From Shigella phage TB004: 64,000 nt of DNA. Positions within the stretch are counted from its first letter, which is position 1, and each line of letters starts with the position of its first letter. The position numbers were made by a program, and so were the translations under genes. Below, piece after piece: positions 2,422-55,692 of this stretch. The notes beneath the pieces are model-generated. The model saw nothing but the letters and a program-made list of their open reading frames with translations, ran no database searches and was not told where the DNA came from. Location of the stretch: sequence record MW822011, one strand, 5' to 3'.

Positions 2422-3541
2422 TTTTAACCTTAACTGGGTCTATTGTTTCCAGTTTCGTTGCATTAGTGAACATATATAGATGAGTTACTGAATTATTATT
2501 TGATAATTCATGGATAACTTCATCAACGTAAAATTCTGTTTTAAATTGGTTTTTACTATCATTAAAAATAATTTTAACGCCAGGGGTTAAGTTAAAATTA
2601 CCGACAGTAGAACATTTAGCATAGCCATCATATTGTGCCATAGTTTGAAGACGAATAGCTTCTTCATACCCGTTCCTATAAGTCATTTCAGAATAAGCAC
2701 CTGATCTTGACACTACAATAGAGTTTTCTCCCTTTCCTGTAGTAATCATTGGCAATGAAGAATCTAAAAATGAATGCGCATAGATAGTAGCGTTTTTCAT
2801 TGGGTCACGTTTGTGAGGATTCGATTTAGTCAACCAAACGAAATCATATGCTAATGGATATTTTAATTCTTGGATGAATTGACCTATTAAAGATGGCTCA
2901 CCGACAATCATTGGATATGGTTCTTGATTTATCATCATATCATAGTCCATCATGTTAACTCCCATGATGTCTTGCCACACAAACACAAATTTGTCACTTC
3001 CTACAGCTAGAGCAACTTCTCTAACATACGATAAATAGTTTTCAAATGTACTAGTCCACGGAATATCAGGAACATAAGCATTTATAGCATTTATTGCTGG
3101 AGTTAATAATGTGCGATCTTGATAAATGACGCCAAGCATTTCCTTTATAGATTCACCTGCATCAGGGAAAAACGGTCTGCCAAATTTAAGATTTTCTATG
3201 GAATGAATAGTTCCCAATTCAATAGCAATGATGTTATCACCCTTTGAATCTACTGACACGGAAAAATGCTTACATCCATAAATTCTTGTTTTAACATTAT
3301 TAATATCGTTTGCATTAGCTACAGAAATCTGAATTATTTCATTTCCATCCATTTTTGTATGGATGTTTTTAGAATCATAAAACTGCAGCATTCCTTCATT
3401 TCGGCCATAAAGAGAATCCCGCATAGTTAATGTGGTAATAGTAGCAGCTAATTCAACAAATCTATTATTACTCCAAGCGTCGTAACTATCAAACAATTTA
3501 ACGCTGAGATTTGGATATCCTGGGCGTTGCAACATACTCAT
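2366..3541 (-). CDS. 27: gp27 baseplate hub subunit
   Basis: 391 aa, matches T4 gp27 length and position. Confidence 0.85.
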
Positions 3542-6320: not shown

Positions 6321-6563
6321 TTAAAAGCTTTCTTCTACTTCATCGTCTGAATCTTCTAATTCAGCTCTTTTTCCTGCCAAAGCATCTCTCACAGAGATGT
6401 CATCAGTATCTTTTAATTCAGTTTCTTTAACTCTTTTCTTGTAATAAGCTTCAAGTTCTTCTAGACCTTCTAATGTTTGACAAGAGGCAATTTTACCCAT
6501 AAATTCATCAATAGAAGCTTCATAAAGAAATTGTTTAAATTCTAGTAACATCTTTTTCTCCAA
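6321..6563 (-). CDS. small acidic protein (uvsW.1 position)
   Basis: 80 aa ORF immediately downstream of uvsW. Confidence 0.6.
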   Translation of the reverse strand: MEKKMLLEFKQFLYEASIDEFMGKIASCQTLEGLEELEAYYKKRVKETELKDTDDISVRDALAGKRAELEDSDDEVEESF

Positions 6564-6576
6564 AGGGCCGGAGCCC

Positions 6577-8085
6577 TTATAAATTAACTGTTTTCATTAC
6601 GTAATTAAATTTTTCATCTGCGTAGCGCTGAATACGATCAATGCCGTGTTTTAAAAGATAGTTCAAATGAACGTATTTCTTTTTCGTATTAGCAGATTTT
6701 GGTCTAACGCCCGCGTCATCTATGAGGTCCCAGACCGTTGCGATTGTTTTAGAACCATGCTTACGTAATACACGACCTATTGTTTGCAATACAATAATTT
6801 TAGATTTAACACCGTGTGCTAAAACAACGTGATGCAGATTTTTAACTGAAATACCAGTAGAAAATACACCATAACTAGCTACTATAATTATTCCTTTACC
6901 GTTTTCAGCTAAGGTTTTCATTACGTTGCGTGTTTCGGTATCAACTTCCCCTGATACGTAATAAACTTTATCGTATTCATTTTTAATTAAATCGAAAATA
7001 GCTTTACCGTGCGATACGTGTTTAAACATGACAAAAGCGTTTTCATCTTTTTGTGCAAGTTTAATAGCTAATTTAGCGATCCATTTATTTCTTTTACTGA
7101 GCCCAGTAATAATTTTTATTTCTTCTTGGTAAGTTTTTCCCTTTAATTTAGTAGTGAACTCATCGGGATAGCGAAGAAAAATACTATTAATTTTTAACTC
7201 AGTTACTTGTCCATCTTCCATTAATTTAGAAGTTGTTACTGGCTTAAATATTTCACCAAACATTCCAACATACTGCATGATATTAGCTTTGCCATCGCGC
7301 AATGAACCGGACAAACCGAATTTGAACATGCAGTTATTTAAACCTGATATGATAGATGAAATACTTTTTCCTGTAGCAAGATGACATTCATCATTCATCA
7401 TCATTCCAAACTGTGAGAACCATTCTTTTGGTTGTTTTACTACAGTTTGCCATGTACCAACAACGACCGGTGCATCATTTTTATATTTATCATCTTTTGA
7501 TGCTCCACCACCGATTTTCTTTATCATTGCATGACTAAATAAACGATAGTCAACAAAGTCATCAGCCATCTGAGTTGTCAGAGCAGTTGTTGGAACAATG
7601 ATAAGAATTTTACCTTCATAATTTTCCAAATAATAACGTGCAAGCAAAGCTTGAATTAAAGATTTACCTGCGGATGTTGGAAGATTAAGAATTCTACGAC
7701 GATTAACTAATCCTTCGAACACTGCATCTTTTTGATACCAATGCGGTTCAATTCTTTTATTTCCTGAATAGATTTCTAATTTAGAAAGCCATTCATCAAA
7801 ATCTTTTCTTGATAATTCTTCTTTTTCGTTAATCTGCGGGTCAATCCAGGCTTTATAGCCAAAGTTATCACAGAACTTTTTAATTTGCCCGACTAAGCCA
7901 AATGGAAGAAGGCGATTATAATCTAAAAGACGGATTCGTCCATCCCAGTTGCCATATCTGAAGCGAGGATTAAACCTATATCCATCGGCCTCAAACGAAA
8001 AGAAATCTCTTAATTCGTGGAACGTGCTCTCTTCACAATCGATGCGTACATGACTGAAGTCGTGAAAATGTACTTTAATATCCAT
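6577..8085 (-). CDS. uvsW: UvsW DNA/RNA helicase
   Basis: 502 aa, helicase motifs (LPTSAGKS Walker A, DECH box). Confidence 0.9.
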   Translation of the reverse strand: MDIKVHFHDFSHVRIDCEESTFHELRDFFSFEADGYRFNPRFRYGNWDGRIRLLDYNRLLPFGLVGQIKKFCDNFGYKAWIDPQINEKEELSRKDFDEWLSKLEIYSGNKRIEPHWYQKDAVFEGLVNRRRILNLPTSAGKSLIQALLARYYLENYEGKILIIVPTTALTTQMADDFVDYRLFSHAMIKKIGGGASKDDKYKNDAPVVVGTWQTVVKQPKEWFSQFGMMMNDECHLATGKSISSIISGLNNCMFKFGLSGSLRDGKANIMQYVGMFGEIFKPVTTSKLMEDGQVTELKINSIFLRYPDEFTTKLKGKTYQEEIKIITGLSKRNKWIAKLAIKLAQKDENAFVMFKHVSHGKAIFDLIKNEYDKVYYVSGEVDTETRNVMKTLAENGKGIIIVASYGVFSTGISVKNLHHVVLAHGVKSKIIVLQTIGRVLRKHGSKTIATVWDLIDDAGVRPKSANTKKKYVHLNYLLKHGIDRIQRYADEKFNYVMKTVNL

Positions 8086-45585: not shown

Positions 45586-45620
45586 ACCCTATCAAAACAA
45601 ATGAGTGATTGGAGAATAAA

Positions 45621-45893
45621 ATGAAAACATTTAAAGAATTTATCAATGAAGCTACTTTTAACGAAAAAGTAAAAATTAGTAAAGCTGTCAAGACTTTGAT
45701 TGCTGACATCAATTACCTATATGATATTGATTTAACTGACTATGTAACAGTTGGTAACAAACGTAACTTTTTCGTGTTTGACATCTCTGAACTTGACCAG
45801 AATCAAATTAACAACATTGAGCGTTTTGCTAATGATAAGGGTCTTCGTCATGAGTCAGCGGGTTATAAAAAATACGCAATTTATTTAAAATGA
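45621..45893 (+). CDS. internal protein with capsid targeting sequence (IPI locus)
   Basis: Starts MKTFKEFINE|A (CTS with I-x-E protease site); own early promoter; adjacent to 57B. Confidence 0.65.
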   Translation: MKTFKEFINEATFNEKVKISKAVKTLIADINYLYDIDLTDYVTVGNKRNFFVFDISELDQNQINNIERFANDKGLRHESAGYKKYAIYLK

Positions 45894-45923
45894 GTTTACT
45901 TTTAAATAGGGTTGTGGTACTAT
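45894..45923 (+). promoter_or_regulatory. T4-type early promoter (IP gene 2)
   Basis: GTTTAC ... TGGTACTAT. Confidence 0.5.
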
Positions 45924-45953
45924 TATCTCATCAAAATTAATTAGGAAAATAAA

Positions 45954-46262
45954 ATGAAAACATTTAAAGAATTTATCAATGAAGCGGCTGCGCCAAAGAC
46001 ATTCGTTATTAATACTCAGGCGAGTCTTGATGATGAATACGCGGAGGCAATTCTGAAGTCACTTGCTAAGAACGGTGTTGAAGTAATTGCTTCGGACTTT
46101 AAGAAAGGGGCTTCCGAGATGTTTATTTCTATAACTAAAGGATCTAAAGCTAAGATTAAATCATCATTCGGAGTTGCTCGTACCGATCAAATCGACAATC
46201 ATGACTTTAAACAAACTGGTGCTAAACGGCAGAATACAATTGCATCACGCGGAATAAAATAG
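45954..46262 (+). CDS. second CTS-bearing internal-protein-like ORF
   Basis: 102 aa; first 37 nt from ATG identical to previous gene (MKTFKEFINEA); own early promoter. Confidence 0.6.
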   Translation: MKTFKEFINEAAAPKTFVINTQASLDDEYAEAILKSLAKNGVEVIASDFKKGASEMFISITKGSKAKIKSSFGVARTDQIDNHDFKQTGAKRQNTIASRGIK

Positions 46263-47190: not shown

Positions 47191-47263
47191 ATATGCTTTA
47201 AGAAATATTTGTTATTATTAACTCATATCGCACTGATTAATACCCTCTATCATCAAGGGTTCT

Positions 47264-47286
47264 TGCTTGAGAGCCTTTGTTAATAA
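47264..47286 (+). promoter_or_regulatory. possible MotA-type middle promoter just upstream of tRNA-Gln
   Basis: TTGCTTGA box followed about 12 nt later by TAATAAT. Confidence 0.3.
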
Positions 47287-47287
47287 T

Positions 47288-47360
47288 TGGGAATTAGCCA
47301 AGTTGGTAAGGCACTGGATTTTGATTCCAGGATGCAAAGGTTCGAGTCCTTTATTCCCAG
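47288..47360 (+). tRNA. tRNA-Gln (anticodon UUG)
   Basis: Cloverleaf by hand: acceptor TGGGAAT/ATTCCCA, anticodon loop TTTTGAT, T-arm AAAGG-TTCGAGT-CCTTT. Confidence 0.85.
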
Positions 47361-47361
47361 C

Positions 47362-47448
47362 GCGAGAATGGTCAAATTGGTAAAGGCACAGCACTTAAAA
47401 TGCTGCGGAATGATTTCCTTGTGGGTTCGAGTCCCACTTCTCGCACCA
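47362..47448 (+). tRNA. tRNA-Leu (anticodon UAA), long variable arm
   Basis: Acceptor GCGAGAA/TTCTCGC, loop CTTAAAA, T-arm GTGGG-TTCGAGT-CCCAC, encoded CCA. Confidence 0.85.
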
Positions 47449-47453
47449 AATTT

Positions 47454-47527
<74 letters not shown>

Positions 47528-47537
47528 ATTTAATTTA

Positions 47538-47611
47538 CTCCGTGTAGCTCAGTTTGGTAGAGCGTCTGCTTTGGGAGCAGAATGTCGCAGGTTCAAATCC
47601 TGCCGCGGAGA
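47538..47611 (+). tRNA. tRNA-Pro (anticodon UGG), no encoded CCA
   Basis: Acceptor CTCCGTG/CGCGGAG, loop TTTGGGA, T-arm GCAGG-TTCAAAT-CCTGC. Confidence 0.8.
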
Positions 47612-47613
47612 CT

Positions 47614-47703
47614 GGAGGCGTGGCAGAGTGGTTTAATGCACCGGTCTTGAAAACCGGCAGTCGCTCCGGCGACTCATAGGTTCAAATCCTATCGCCTCCG
47701 CCA
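47614..47703 (+). tRNA. tRNA-Ser (anticodon UGA), class II
   Basis: Acceptor GGAGGCG/CGCCTCC, loop CTTGAAA, long variable arm, CCA. Confidence 0.85.
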
Positions 47704-47708
47704 GTTTT

Positions 47709-47784
47709 GCTGATTTAGCTCAGTAGGTAGAGCAACTCACTTGTAATGAGAAGGTCGGCGGTTCGATTCCGTCAATCAGCACCA
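47709..47784 (+). tRNA. tRNA-Thr (anticodon UGU)
   Basis: Acceptor GCTGATT/AATCAGC, loop CTTGTAA, CCA. Confidence 0.8.
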
Positions 47785-47785
47785 A

Positions 47786-47860
47786 GGCCCTGTAGCTGGA
47801 AGGTTCAAGCAAGCGACTCATAATCGCCAGATGGTGGTTCAATTCCACCCAGGGCCACCA
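47786..47860 (+). tRNA. tRNA-Ile (anticodon CAU, lysidine type) or Met
   Basis: Acceptor GGCCCTG/CAGGGCC, loop CTCATAA, CCA; T4 carries Ile with CAU at this position. Confidence 0.8.
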
Positions 47861-47873
47861 AATTAAGAATTAA

Positions 47874-47960
47874 GGGGAGTTATCCCGTAGAGGTAGCGGT
47901 GTGGACTGTAAATCCATTGTCATTGCGACTCGGGTGGTTCGACTCCATCACTCCCCACCA
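47874..47960 (+). tRNA. tRNA-Tyr-like (anticodon GUA), class II, or tRNA-like stable RNA
   Basis: Acceptor GGGGAGT/ACTCCCC + A + CCA; anticodon loop CTGTAAA; T-arm GGTGG-TTCGACT-CCATC; D-arm imperfect. Confidence 0.55.
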
Positions 47961-47964
47961 ATTT

Positions 47965-48039
47965 GGATGTGTAGCTCAGTGGTAGAGCAGTTGACTGTTA
48001 ATCAATTGGTCCATGGTTCGAATCCATGCATGTCCGCCA
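47965..48039 (+). tRNA. tRNA-Asn (anticodon GUU)
   Basis: Canonical cloverleaf: acceptor GGATGTG/CATGTCC, D-stem GCTC/GAGC, loop CTGTTAA, T-arm CATGG-TTCGAAT-CCATG, CCA. Confidence 0.75.
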
Positions 48040-48164
48040 AATTTGTGACAACTGTCACATTAATATCTACTTGACGCGATTATAGGGTTGAACTGATCAC
48101 TCTTCTCTTAATTTCGTGTGAAGACATCTTGATTGTTGGAGTAGGTATTAATGTGAACTAATTA

Positions 48165-48241
48165 CGGGGTGTAACTCAATTGTATAGAGTAGCGGTCCTC
48201 TAAACCGCAGGTTAAAGGTTAGAATCCTTTCACCCTGGCCA
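48165..48241 (+). tRNA. tRNA-Arg (anticodon UCU)
   Basis: Acceptor CGGGGTG/CACCCTG, D-stem ACTC/GAGT, anticodon stem GCGGT/ACCGC with loop CCTCTAA, T-arm AAAGG-TTAGAAT-CCTTT, CCA. Confidence 0.7.
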
Positions 48242-48262
48242 AATTATTGAGAGAATAATATT

Positions 48263-48817
48263 ATGAGAAGTGATGTAGACTGGGACCAAATTAATTTGGC
48301 TATAAAAGCTGGATTAATATACCGTGGTAATTTTGAAATAACACAAGAACTAATTGAAAATGTTGCTTTTCTTAAAATAACAGACAAGAAAAAATTCTTT
48401 TCTATGACTAAAGCCAAACGCTTGTCAATATGGAAAGTATTTTGTAGGACTGCCGCCCTAAATCTTTTGAAATTTAAAGATGAATTTGATATAGAAAAAA
48501 GCTATCGGCAAGCTTTCGTATACATAATGGTAGATACTACAAATCCTAATTATTATAAAATAGGAAGAAGTATAGAACCCGATGTTAGAGTTATAACAGC
48601 AAATACATTTTCACCGTTTAAAAGTTTTAAAATAGTATCATTTAGATATTCCCAGGATGCAGTAGAACTTGAAAAATATATGCACAGCATTTATAATCAG
48701 GACCATATAAATGGCGAATGGTTTTTCTTTCATGACATAAGTTCCATAGTTAAAAAATTAGATACTAAATCTACACAATTTGAAATACCAAATGAGAAGC
48801 CGGGTCGCTACCGGTAA
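48263..48817 (+). CDS. hypothetical protein with C-terminal T5orf172 (GIY-YIG-related) domain
   Basis: 184 aa; C-terminal FVYIMVDTTNPNYYKIGRS...VELEKYMHSIYNQDHINGEWFFF fits T5orf172/MUG113 pattern; begins 22 nt after tRNA-Arg. Confidence 0.6.
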   Translation: MRSDVDWDQINLAIKAGLIYRGNFEITQELIENVAFLKITDKKKFFSMTKAKRLSIWKVFCRTAALNLLKFKDEFDIEKSYRQAFVYIMVDTTNPNYYKIGRSIEPDVRVITANTFSPFKSFKIVSFRYSQDAVELEKYMHSIYNQDHINGEWFFFHDISSIVKKLDTKSTQFEIPNEKPGRYR

Positions 48818-49126
48818 GTCGTCGGACTGATGTTCCCTGCGTAAGGACTGGTCTTAATAAATCTTTACGATTTGTTAATATCCCCTTACATCACAGCAGA
48901 AACGGCGCACCGAATTATCGATTCGAGGAAATATCTTTGCCGTAAGCCGAGTAGCGTTTTTGACGGAACGTTCGGATATGGTCGAGATATGGCCTTTTAA
49001 AAATATTGAGTAGCGTCAACTACTTAATAACCGGGTTCGAATCCCGGCGTTTCGTACAAACACTTGCCTTAGCAGGTGGAACCCCGACAAGGTATATAGC
49101 CCCTTCCGAAAGGTTGGGGCTTTTTT
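48818..49126 (+). ncRNA. candidate structured non-coding RNA region (possibly stable RNA(s) co-transcribed with the tRNA array) ending in an intrinsic terminator
   Basis: About 310 bp with no ORF of 60 aa or more on either strand in an otherwise compact genome; hairpins incl. CCGGG-TTCGAAT-CCCGG (49031-49047, tRNA T-arm-like) and AGCCCC...GGGGCT+T6 (49098-49126). Confidence 0.3.
49098..49126 (+). terminator. intrinsic terminator closing the tRNA-region transcript
   Basis: AGCCCC-(12 nt loop)-GGGGCT then T6. Confidence 0.6.
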
Positions 49127-49127
49127 G

Positions 49128-49135
49128 TATAAATA
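49128..49135 (+). promoter_or_regulatory. late promoter upstream of the 49171 ORF
   Basis: TATAAATA immediately after terminator hairpin. Confidence 0.55.
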
Positions 49136-49170
49136 TAGTAAACAATAAACCTACTTTCTAAGGACCATCA

Positions 49171-49551
49171 ATGTATACTTTTAATGAATTTTTAGCCGAA
49201 ACGGAAGTAATCACCGAAGCCGGCGTACGTATGACAAAAGAGAAATGGCAAGCTGCTTACGATGCTATTTCTGGTACAAAAACTAGTACAGAGTTTTTCA
49301 AAAACGTTCAAGCCATGTACGGTATCGACACTTCTAGCCAAAAAGAATATTACAGAGCTTCTAAAGCATTCAAAGATATTGTTAGTGGTGGTGTTTCTGC
49401 TAAATCGGGTTCGCCTAAAGTAAAACCTGCTCCTACCATTCCTAAACCTGCGACCCCTAAAGCAAAACCTGAGCCTAAGCCGGAAGTAAAAGCACCTCCT
49501 AAAGCTCCTGCTCTTAAGTTTGATACTTCTAGCCTGGAAAAAAAAATATAA
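49171..49551 (+). CDS. hypothetical Lys/Pro/Ala-rich protein, 5' part of a probable split gene
   Basis: 126 aa ORF behind TATAAATA late promoter; ends inside an A9 run. Confidence 0.5.
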   Translation: MYTFNEFLAETEVITEAGVRMTKEKWQAAYDAISGTKTSTEFFKNVQAMYGIDTSSQKEYYRASKAFKDIVSGGVSAKSGSPKVKPAPTIPKPATPKAKPEPKPEVKAPPKAPALKFDTSSLEKKI

Positions 49552-49792
49552 ACAACTATCTTCGCTTGTTCGTGATATTGAATCCGATACATCTTCACTC
49601 GTTCGTGAATTCAATAGTCTTCGCAATGGCCAACATATCAACAACCTTGATACCCCAGACCTTTATCGTCTTTATTTGACTATCGAAGGTTTGAAGTATA
49701 CTCAACCACTTCACGATGCGATTAAAGAAAAACTTCGTCAGGCAGGTCGTTTGGCTGCTGACGCTGCTCAGTATGCAAAAACCCGTAAATAA
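49520..49792 (+). CDS. 3' part of probable split gene (+1 frame relative to 49171 ORF)
   Basis: Overlaps previous ORF by about 30 nt across the A9 run; no good independent start/RBS. Confidence 0.4.
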   Translation: MILLAWKKKYKQLSSLVRDIESDTSSLVREFNSLRNGQHINNLDTPDLYRLYLTIEGLKYTQPLHDAIKEKLRQAGRLAADAAQYAKTRK

Positions 49793-49870
49793 TTAAGTTA
49801 CAATCACTTAAGCCCCTTCCTATGGTTGGGGCTTTCGGGCATCTAGGGCAGATAAATTTTTCACAAAGTT

Positions 49871-49899
49871 GTTTACTTCTCCTTGAGGTATGATACTAT
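49871..49899 (+). promoter_or_regulatory. T4-type early promoter
   Basis: GTTTAC ... TGATACTAT. Confidence 0.5.
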
Positions 49900-49929
49900 A
49901 GACCTATCAAAACAAATGAGGAAAACATT

Positions 49930-50433
49930 ATGAGTCTTTATACTGAACTGAATAAAAAATCTGAAGAATCGCGTGACGTTGTTTTTAAAAATGTACAAAA
50001 GCGTATTTTGGAAAAGATGTATGATGCTGCATCTAAAGGTGAAAAATCATGCCGCTTTCCGATGAGATGTTCTACAGATTTATGCTCAAATACTATTGAA
50101 TGGTTAGAAAGCGAAGGTCTTACTGTAGAGAAAAACCCGGCGACTTCTATTGACGGTGAATCATATATTAGTATTTCTTGGGATAAACCACAGGTTAATG
50201 AGAAAGACGGTGATTGGGTTGTGGATGTTAAGACTTCTGATGGTGGACGTTCTGTTGAAGTTTCAGCCGTAGTTAAAGGTACACATGGGCAAAATAGCTG
50301 GGGATGTGGTGGTGAAGAAAAAGAAATTGTTCTTAGTGTGATTGCAAGGTCCACTAGCAATAAAATTGCCCAGAGCATCATCTATGCTGCGTGCATTGAA
50401 GCTGGAAAAATTTGCAAAATTAAAAATAAATGA
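49930..50433 (+). CDS. hypothetical protein
   Basis: 167 aa; early promoter cassette upstream. Confidence 0.55.
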   Translation: MSLYTELNKKSEESRDVVFKNVQKRILEKMYDAASKGEKSCRFPMRCSTDLCSNTIEWLESEGLTVEKNPATSIDGESYISISWDKPQVNEKDGDWVVDVKTSDGGRSVEVSAVVKGTHGQNSWGCGGEEKEIVLSVIARSTSNKIAQSIIYAACIEAGKICKIKNK

Positions 50434-50494
50434 TGTACAAACACCAAGGACGGTGTTACTATAGACCTATCAAATCAAATGAGAGGAAAATAAA

Positions 50495-50722
50495 ATGGCT
50501 AAAGTTAGTATTGATGTCGTTGATTATGAATACACAGAAGAAGTTATTCGCAACCGCCACCCTGAAGTTCGTATCGATTCAGTCCAAGATTCCAAGTTCT
50601 GGACAACTGAGCTTAATCTGAGTGGTTCTTATGAAGCCGTTAAGAAGTTCATGGTTGAAGAATACTGCGAAGGCATGCACCCGGAAGACGCCGAGTTTTA
50701 TGTCAATTTGATTAAAAAATAA
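50495..50722 (+). CDS. hypothetical protein
   Basis: 75 aa ORF with RBS GAGAGGAAAA. Confidence 0.5.
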   Translation: MAKVSIDVVDYEYTEEVIRNRHPEVRIDSVQDSKFWTTELNLSGSYEAVKKFMVEEYCEGMHPEDAEFYVNLIKK

Positions 50723-50792
50723 TTTACAAACTCTTGAGAGCAGAGTATAATGCTCTCATTGGATAATAAACCACCAATTGAAAGGTAATAAT

Positions 50793-52403: not shown

Positions 52404-52759
52404 ATAAAGTCAAATATTCGCTTCCTGAGTCATTTTTAATTTTTGCTGTGGCGTTGGCTGCAGCTCTTGCCGGTAGTCTTATTGGATTAATGATTGACTG
52501 TATTATTTTAAACATCCGCAGTAACGTCAGCGGTATAGTAGATATAATAGAAGTTTGGAGTGAACTTCATTATACTATAGCAATTTCATTATTTTCATTC
52601 TTTAGCATCATTTTATATTTTCATTATGATAATTTTAAAATAAATTGGCAAAGAAAAAAGGATTACAAAATACAATTAAAAGAATATAATAACTACATGT
52701 CTTATATTGAAAATGAATCAATGAAAGAGTTTGTGAGTGATTGTAGGAAAATCAAATGA
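52385..52759 (+). CDS. small membrane protein, family member 3
   Basis: 124 aa MQKPKLNKVKY...; two hydrophobic helices; C-terminal EFVSDCRKIK. Confidence 0.55.
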   Translation: MQKPKLNKVKYSLPESFLIFAVALAAALAGSLIGLMIDCIILNIRSNVSGIVDIIEVWSELHYTIAISLFSFFSIILYFHYDNFKINWQRKKDYKIQLKEYNNYMSYIENESMKEFVSDCRKIK

Positions 52760-52860
52760 TTTTAAAAACTCGCTGGTATGATTTAGATGATGGGGACGAT
52801 GGCATTTCAGTCGATAGAGTTGACTGGAGCGGCTGTTCCGAAGATATGAAAATTTGCTGA
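52756..52860 (+). CDS. very small acidic ORF (34 aa), not in ORF track
   Basis: ATG overlaps previous stop (ATGA); MILKTRWYDLDDGDDGISVDRVDWSGCSEDMKIC. Confidence 0.3.
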   Translation: MILKTRWYDLDDGDDGISVDRVDWSGCSEDMKIC

Positions 52861-52874
52861 TTAGGGAGTTTAGA

Positions 52875-53224
52875 ATGGGATATCAACCAGTTAAGCCATC
52901 TACTGCAACAGATGATAAATTCGTGTGTATTCGAAACGGCCGCGCTAAATTAACGAACGCTGATTGGTTTACAGGCAAGAATATGCTTCTATGGTATATC
53001 ATTAGTCTTCCTGTGTCATCATTCGTATTTTATTTCTTTGGAAAAAATCCAATGGATAGAATAGGAGATTGGGCTCTTTTTACTCTGCTTGTTAATATTT
53101 TTATAACAGCAATACTATCAGGAATATGGTGCGTGTTCATTGAAATGCCATGGCGGTTACGTAGACAGCAAAAGATTTTTGATGAAAAGAAATATACTCA
53201 AAATTTAAATAATTTTATCACCGA

Positions 53225-53243
<19 letters not shown>
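52875..53243 (+). CDS. small membrane protein, family member 4
   Basis: 122 aa from MGYQPVKP; two hydrophobic helices; C-terminal NFITECRKLK. Confidence 0.55.
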
Positions 53244-54210
<967 letters not shown>

Positions 54211-54214
54211 AGTT

Positions 54215-54244
54215 GTTTACTTTCTCCTAAAACTGTGATAGTAT
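54215..54244 (+). promoter_or_regulatory. T4-type early promoter upstream of ipIII
   Basis: GTTTAC ... TGATAGTAT. Confidence 0.5.
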
Positions 54245-54281
54245 ATTCACAGTTACTAATTAAAATATTTAAAGGAAACAC

Positions 54282-54849
54282 ATGAAAACCTATAAAGAAT
54301 TTATCGCTGGAAAAGGCCAAAGGCATTAATAAAGATGAGTGGACTTACCGAGGAAACGGCTTTGACCCTAAAACAGCCCCTATTGAACGATACTTAGCTA
54401 CAAAAGCTTCCGACTTTAAAGCTTTCGCTTGGGAAGGACTTCGCTGGCGTACCGATCTAAATATTGAAGTTGATGGGCTTAAATTTGGCCATATTCAAGA
54501 TGTTGTTGCTAGTAACTTGGATGCAGCTTTTGTTAAAGCTGACGGTGACCTTCGTCGCTGGAATTTAAAACTATTCTCTAAACAGAAAGGCCCGGTGTTT
54601 GTGCCTAAAGCTGGTAAATGGGTTATTGATAATAAATTAGCTAAGGCTGTCAACTACGCTGGTCTTGAATTCGCCAAGCATAAATCATCATGGAAAGGTC
54701 TTGATGCAATGGCCTTCCGTAAAGAATTTGCTGATGTTATGGCTAAAGGCGGCTTTAAGGCAGAAATAGATACCTCTAAAGGTACGTTTAAAGACGCTAA
54801 TGTTCAGTACGCTTACGCTGTTGCTAATGCAGCCCGTGGTAATTCTTAA
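54282..54849 (+). pseudogene. ipIII: internal protein III gene, apparently frameshifted after codon 9
   Basis: CTS MKTYKEFIA in frame 3 stops after 15 codons (54327-54329); body (…EKAKGINKDEWTYRGNGF…ARGNS) open in frame 1 from 54286; consistent with one extra G at 54309/54310. Confidence 0.7.
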
Positions 54850-54957
54850 TAAAGCCGAGTTCGAACCCGGTAATAGATAAATATAGAAACAGACAATTCG
54901 CACGCATGAATTGTCCCAAACTTAAAGAATAAAACTATTTACATTTAAAGGAAACAC

Positions 54958-55260
54958 ATGAAAACATATCAAGAATTTATTACTGAAGCGCGAGTGAGTG
55001 CAGGTAAATTAGAAGCCGCTATAAATAAAAAGGCCCATTCATTTCACGATTTGTCCGATAAAGACCGTAAGAAACTTGTAAGCCTTTATATTGACAAAGA
55101 GCGTATTCTCGCTCTTCCTGGCGCTAATGAAGGTAAACAGGCCAAGCCTTTGAATGCTGTCGAAAAGAAAATTGATAACTTTGCTTCTAAATTCGGTATG
55201 TCTATGGATGACCTTCAGCAAGCGGCTATCGAAGCAGCTAAAGTAATTAAAGGTAAATAA
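54958..55260 (+). CDS. ipII: internal protein II
   Basis: 100 aa, CTS MKTYQEFITE|ARV. Confidence 0.8.
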   Translation: MKTYQEFITEARVSAGKLEAAINKKAHSFHDLSDKDRKKLVSLYIDKERILALPGANEGKQAKPLNAVEKKIDNFASKFGMSMDDLQQAAIEAAKVIKGK

Positions 55261-55317: not shown

Positions 55318-55541
55318 ATGACTCGTATTAATTTGACTTTAGTATCTGAACTTGCTGATCAACATTTAATCGCGGAATACCATGAATTGCCGCGTGTTTT
55401 TGATATAATTCGTAAACACGCGGCAAATGGAAAAATGATTATAATCCATGCAAATCAGCTATTAAGTTGAGTCAACAACGACTCGATGAAAAAATTTTAA
55501 TGAAGCCGCATTGGTATAAGTATTACGGCAAAAATATTTAC
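55318..55541 (+). pseudogene. denV: denV (endonuclease V, pyrimidine-dimer glycosylase) remnant with internal deletion and frame change
   Basis: N-terminus [28 protein letters not shown] then stop at 55468-55470; C-terminal homology SQQRLDEKILMKPHWYKYYGKNIY in a different frame; about 190 bp of the middle missing relative to the 138-aa T4 enzyme. Confidence 0.75.
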
Positions 55542-55692
55542 ATTCAAATAACATGGGAACAAGCTGGACCTCATGATTCTGTGAGGGATTCCCGCCAACC
55601 TGTAATAAGGTCGAGCCCAAGTGCGGTAATGGGTAAATACAGAAATGGACAATTCATGCGCCACGGAATGGCCCAAATTTAGAGATAACAAA

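Follow-up and report, generated by a model that had tools for sequence, protein, structure and literature searches.

IPIII belongs to the abundant, basic internal proteins of the phage head, each of which has been reported at about 300 copies per T4 head. Within the capsid-targeting sequence (CTS) of the T4 internal proteins, processing is governed by residues 8 and 10 and targeting by residues 4 and 7 (PMC9026906). Mutants of T4 ipIII remain viable; their burst is about 40% of normal, their heads mature more slowly and polyheads are more frequent (PMC9026906). T4 clones without ipIII fail to plate on E. coli ECOR17 and are rescued by plasmid-borne ipIII, even when the CTS is omitted. This rescue suggests that IPIII probably acts as an injected anti-defence factor in ECOR17 (PMC9391042).

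Phages that lack ipIII also occur naturally. The contigs that encode exactly the IPII protein found in the window (the 64,000 nt stretch of Shigella phage TB004, record MW822011, that was analysed here) include two T4-like representatives, L020 and L021, in which ipII directly succeeds e and ipIII is absent. The spacer between e and ipII in these contigs (2930-3000, compared with 54210-54300 in the window) holds an ipIII-type promoter and leader, which points to loss of the cassette by recombination between repeated leader and CTS sequences. The 353-kb L020 contig also carries LysE and LysR genes and so is probably a chimeric assembly.

Positions 53.2-56.2 kb of the window correspond to the T4-type nudE-e-ipIII-ipII-denV-vs.8 neighbourhood. 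Searches with tblastn, comparison with annotated relatives and a leader motif all place the gene of interest between e (lysozyme) and ipII/denV, with a leader that it shares with ipII. The locus resembles T4 ipIII (NP_049735; phrog_5341) in its e-ipIII-ipII-denV order, which is also that of phage vB_VIPECOOM01, in its leader, and in CTS residues 1-9 except for K5/Q5. Furthermore, the protein body has 94% amino-acid identity to T4 IPIII. Unlike in T4, however, the residues E10-A-S-V are gone, the frame is shifted, and the CTS and the body no longer form one ORF. Features of the locus are collected in Table 1.

Table 1. Coordinates of features at the ipIII locus of the window
Feature	Position	Strand	Remarks
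T4-type early-promoter-like element, GTTTAC-N14-gtgaTAgtaT (function inferred)	54215..54244	+	Upstream of ipIII; sequence reading
Ribosome-binding leader AAAGGAAACAC, common to ipIII and ipII	54271..54281	+	Kept in all relatives
Residual ipIII start, MKTYKEFIAGKGQRH plus stop	54282..54329	+	CTS residues 1-9 kept, Glu10 lost; translation and alignment
Deletion junction, GC/TG/GA	54307..54310	+	Relatives carry TGAAGCTTCTGTG; alignment
IPIII body, E14 to S193 in T4 numbering	54310..54849 (including stop)	+	+1 frame relative to the ATG
ipII, intact, CTS MKTYQEFITE/A	54958..55260	+	phrog_7857, E 4.5e-55
denV remnant	55318..55547	+	187-bp internal out-of-frame deletion, stop TAA to CAA; alignment with JE01 and T4

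The putative promoter fits the consensus GTTTAC(N14)gtggTAttaT that is quoted in the annotation of phage SA21RB for the homologous site, and a sigma-70 consensus scan found nothing. A 31-nt motif comprising the leader and CTS occurs exactly twice in the window, at 54271 (ipIII) and 54947 (ipII), where none is expected by chance. Besides ipII, two other intact CTS genes are present, both beginning MKTFKEFINE/A (45621-45893 and 45954-46262), for a total of three. These two different genes (about 90 and 102 amino acids) lie in a region, 45609-46262, that has no homologue of T4 ipI, and the content of the ipI locus thus reads as an example of internal-protein cassette replacement. Between ipIII and ipII, positions 54891-54916 form a perfect hairpin with a 9-bp stem (AGACAATTC-N8-GAATTGTCT), which scored as terminator-like on the minus strand only.

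Translation from the ipIII start codon at 54282 yields an ORF of 15 codons that ends at tandem TAA TAA codons (54327-54332). The body frame is open from 54286 for 187 codons (KPIKNLSLEKAKGINKDEW...ARGNS) and stops at 54847-54849, with homology to IPIII beginning at the Glu codon at 54310. A previous sequence-only reading of this DNA had proposed that ipIII is frameshifted just past codon 9, so that the CTS is uncoupled from the IPIII body, and both frames bear this out. Its coordinates were also right, both for the stop at 54327-54329 that ends the frame of the ATG and for the +1 frame that is open from 54286 to 54849. A Pfam scan returned no families, using a model set that holds neither IpII nor IpIII, and PHROGs profiles were used instead to assign protein families. 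The body matches phrog_5341 ('internal virion protein') with an E value of 5.4e-109 over profile positions 13-192 of 192, and its amino-acid identity to annotated intact IPIII proteins is 94-97%. Thus, the body is homologous to IPIII, whereas the 10-residue CTS ending in (I/L)-x-E that should be fused in frame to such a body is broken, with Glu10 deleted and the body displaced to the +1 frame.

To define the lesion, we aligned the 5′ end of ipIII with the genes of T4, JE01, Shfl2 and ECML-134, and then with seven more intact alleles (11 in total, all from Tequatrovirus). Every intact relative reads ...ATY GCY GAA GCT TCT GTN G(A/T)A AAG GCC..., and GAAGCTTCTGTN is kept in all 11 alleles. At the same place the window reads ...ATC GC/TG/GAAAAGGCC..., and hence is missing 11 bases, either AAGCTTCTGTG or, equivalently, TGAAGCTTCTG. 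The breakpoint is ambiguous across a 2-bp TG microhomology at 54308-54309. Codons 10-13 (E-A-S-V) are lost; of these residues, Glu10 occupies P1 at the I-A-E cleavage site and Ala-Ser-Val belong to the mature protein. As 11 is not divisible by three, the frame is shifted as well. The deletion also eliminates an AAGCTT site at the boundary between the CTS and the mature protein.

One 11-bp deletion is the economical explanation of the ipIII frameshift. The alternative put forward previously, a single extra G in GCTGGAAAAGG, did not hold up, since the alignment with the 11 intact alleles shows a single 11-bp gap. Dropping one G does create an ORF with an I-A-E site, as had been claimed, but its product is 188 amino acids long rather than about 193. 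Moreover, the extra-G explanation requires an allele with an in-frame 12-bp deletion plus a 1-nt insertion, and the 12-bp allele was found nowhere that we searched. When the G-dropped sequence itself was used as a query, no phage record matched it without a 12-nt gap, and no viral contig matched.

The geometry of the locus, with a short ORF in the 0 frame that runs into a stop codon and a body in the +1 frame, is the one respect in which it is like the prfB-type +1 frameshifting sites of E. coli. The CUU-UGA-type pair of slippery and stop codons, the correctly spaced internal SD and the conservation that characterize those sites are all absent, and the frame change in ipIII is a deletion private to the window sequence. 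If ribosomes were nevertheless to shift by +1 (or -2), for example by movement of tRNA-Lys from AAA to AAG at GGA-AAA-GGC (54307-54315), the product would be MKTYKEFIAGK-AKGINK..., a CTS-IPIII fusion that could not be cleaved and could still be packaged. Such re-pairing from AAA to AAG is sterically possible, the IPIII body is fully open, and the CTS still has residues 4 and 7, which serve targeting. In T4, loss of Glu10 stops processing and not targeting (PMC9026906), and given the residue roles established there, a shifted product without Glu10 would be directed to the head yet remain uncleaved.

These considerations are outweighed by the failure to find features that would promote a shift. 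Neither a hungry codon nor a stop codon occupies the A site at GGA-AAA-GGC to pause the ribosome, and GGC is not translated slowly. The 0-frame stop, in the context CAT-TAA-T, gives no opportunity for re-pairing because His-tRNA cannot pair again on AUU. Hence the combination of a slippery P-site codon with an adjacent stop or hungry A-site codon is missing. Neither an upstream SD-like stimulator in the prfB-like arrangement nor a stable downstream structure is present; the RNA from 54265 to 54400 folds with an MFE of -16 kcal/mol (z = +0.96), and 169 of 200 shuffled sequences fold at least as well. Furthermore, the arrangement is found in no other phage searched and so lacks conservation, ipIII being a single intact ORF in all 11 relatives, and a recent deletion already accounts for the open body. 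We therefore regard expression by ribosomal frameshifting as extremely improbable. Internal restart was also considered and rejected: the body frame contains no ATG, GTG or TTG before the TTG at 54517, and no SD-like purine run is seen just upstream of this first canonical start.

The body of the gene provides an indication of the age of the allele. Among 12 aligned alleles including that of the window, it carries one private substitution, a synonymous change from GCT to GCC at 54714, and no private amino-acid changes or stops. With so little divergence, the pseudogene is expected to be very young. The recency of the deletion would by itself account for the uninterrupted body, and continued expression need not be invoked. 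The deletion may even have arisen during isolation or propagation of the phage. On these grounds, the event would be either very recent or an artefact.

Under the second of these choices, the phage would have an intact ipIII, and 11 bases would have been dropped during assembly or consensus calling, so that the true sequence is GCTGAAGCTTCTGTGGAAAAGG rather than the junction GCTGGAAAAGG. The junction is unique across every collection searched. It is absent among the phage-record matches listed, of which the full-length ones span 91 record bases per 80 query bases, and it was not found in IMG/VR contigs, in one-genome-per-species contigs, in JGI metagenome contigs, in complete E. coli genomes or in 21 fetched loci. 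This uniqueness, and an IPIII body that is otherwise pristine and without decay, would be just as expected if the assembly were at fault. The phage has no close sibling in the phage collection, where the best match to a 20-kb segment is about 95% identical and covers 84% of it.

To examine whether the window shows other signs of error, we used tblastn to compare it with all T4 proteins of the syntenic region and all proteins of the closer relative vB_VIPECOOM01. All essential and structural genes (among them 1-29, 53, 57A, and head genes 20-24) gave single, full-length, stop-free matches, except that gene 48 is cut by the edge of the window and the gp67 alignment was limited to residues 1-47, or 59% of the protein. 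True disruptions number three, all in dispensable genes less than 3 kb apart: e.2, ipIII and denV. Apparent frameshifts in vs.5 and vs.8 relative to T4 proved to be natural variants, as both genes are intact relative to vB_VIPECOOM01. Similarly, an apparent frameshift in uvsW relative to T4 corresponds, at the nucleotide level, to the known two-gene arrangement of uvsW and uvsW.1. None of these three cases is a sign of poor assembly. At this locus (6324-8085, minus strand; junction at about 6553-6569), uvsW terminates at a TAA. Beyond it lie a GC-rich hairpin (GGGCTCCGGCCC), an SD (GGAG) and then the start codon (ATG) of a separate small ORF, uvsW.1. The T4 RefSeq reads uvsW and uvsW.1 as one fused protein of 587 amino acids, and the record notes sequence discrepancies. 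Elsewhere, 47200-50790 gave no protein match to the T4 tRNA/segB/e.7/e.8 region or to several hypothetical genes of vB_VIPECOOM01; it appears to be a hyperplastic region whose content differs.

In the denV pseudogene, the deletion has a microhomology of AATGG at about 55426-55430, which in intact alleles flanks the deleted part as a direct repeat. The tblastn matches to the gene are split, and the N-terminal fragment covers only positions 1-40 of phrog_1183. The denV junction was not found among the phage-record matches listed, and we found no record with exactly the truncated DenV protein. The IPII protein, by contrast, occurs too widely for an exact match to single out the lineage. From its sequence, this deletion predicts a UV-sensitive phage. 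The e.2 gene (52756-53243) is split into ORFs of 34 and 129 amino acids where relatives encode a membrane protein of 162 amino acids. The split results from an A-run at 52849-52852 that is one A short of the A5 homopolymer in vB_VIPECOOM01, and either a genuine mutation or a sequencing error in the homopolymer may underlie the difference.

The 1-nt difference in e.2 is the type of error made by noisy platforms, and to this extent it favours an artefact at ipIII. However, an 11-bp loss within sequence that is neither repetitive nor homopolymeric would be an unusual error of base calling or polishing, and no frameshifted essential genes were found by tblastn in 64 kb. The adjoining 187-bp deletion in denV lies beyond any base-calling error, which indicates that this genome carries genuine microhomology deletions. 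On balance, an assembly or sequencing artefact is unlikely, although it is the alternative that we take most seriously.

The deletion might instead have been engineered or selected in the laboratory, for example by escape from a nuclease or CRISPR directed at the CTS cleavage site. It falls exactly at the boundary between the CTS and the mature protein and removes the AAGCTT site there, small microhomology deletions are typical of escape products, and, to judge from the titles of papers, ipIII is commonly targeted in T4 engineering. Conversely, the backbone is not T4, as ipIII is 92.6% identical to the T4 gene and no phage record exceeds 96% identity over 20 kb. There is also no foreign sequence or scar, and the lesions in denV and e.2 seem to be spontaneous. 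We consider this origin highly improbable. About as doubtful, if perhaps slightly less so, is adaptive loss, in which the lineage would have been selected against packaging and injecting an IPIII that the host senses, making the lesion an immunity-escape event that inactivated a trigger protein, as happens in other phages that evade defences. Still less likely than adaptive loss is low-level +1 shifting that would produce an uncleavable, permanently CTS-tagged IPIII.

The explanation that we favour, with good though not complete confidence, is that the window carries a genuine and evolutionarily very recent loss-of-function allele of a Tequatrovirus ipIII, caused by a single 11-bp deletion. 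The DNA lesion and its consequences for the reading frames are plain. Of the three explanations offered by the sequence-only reading, an inactivating mutation is the best supported; a single-base error does not fit a loss of 11 bp, and a +1 ribosomal shift found no support. The deletion probably arose by replication slippage or illegitimate recombination at the TG/TG microhomology. Initiation at the normal SD and ATG would then give a 15-residue peptide that terminates at TAA TAA, and the IPIII body would not be made for want of a usable start codon of its own. Even if it were made, a body without CTS would not be targeted to the prohead, and phage heads that lack IPIII would be assembled. If the T4 ipIII mutants are a guide, the absence of the protein is predicted to reduce the burst, to raise the number of polyheads and to make the phage fail on hosts that require IPIII, such as ECOR17.

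This allele is similar to the laboratory T4 ipIII nulls (Black laboratory; Srikant et al. 2022) in that no IPIII is predicted in the head and viability is predicted on standard hosts (PMC9026906; PMC9391042). The laboratory nulls, however, are amber codons or multi-kilobase deletions in T4, whereas the window has a spontaneous 11-bp microdeletion in another Tequatrovirus whose phenotype is predicted. Likewise, the window resembles the natural ipIII-less T4-like phages L020 and L021 in that ipIII function is missing from an otherwise syntenic locus. In those contigs, however, the whole ipIII cassette has been cleanly excised, whereas in the window the gene is still there as a fresh pseudogene.

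As L020 and L021 illustrate, ip genes are naturally polymorphic. The change described here is an ordinary loss of a dispensable, polymorphic internal-protein gene: the allele is new, the kind of event is well known, and no new mechanism is involved. The appropriate annotation of the locus is ipIII pseudogene, with the 11-bp deletion given as its cause, and the locus should neither be 'repaired' by dropping a G nor be labelled as a frameshifting site. Beyond correct annotation and the predicted IPIII-null, DenV-null phenotype, the general interest of the finding is small. If the lesion is real, the phage would be a natural Tequatrovirus that is null for both IPIII and DenV. It would then provide a ready-made control for studies of IPIII function, including the implicated role of the protein in overcoming a defence in E. 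coli ECOR17 (PMC9391042), and could be used to test how much IPIII adds to the assembly of heads in phages other than T4. Its host range may also be narrower and its sensitivity to UV higher, properties that would be relevant to its use in therapy.
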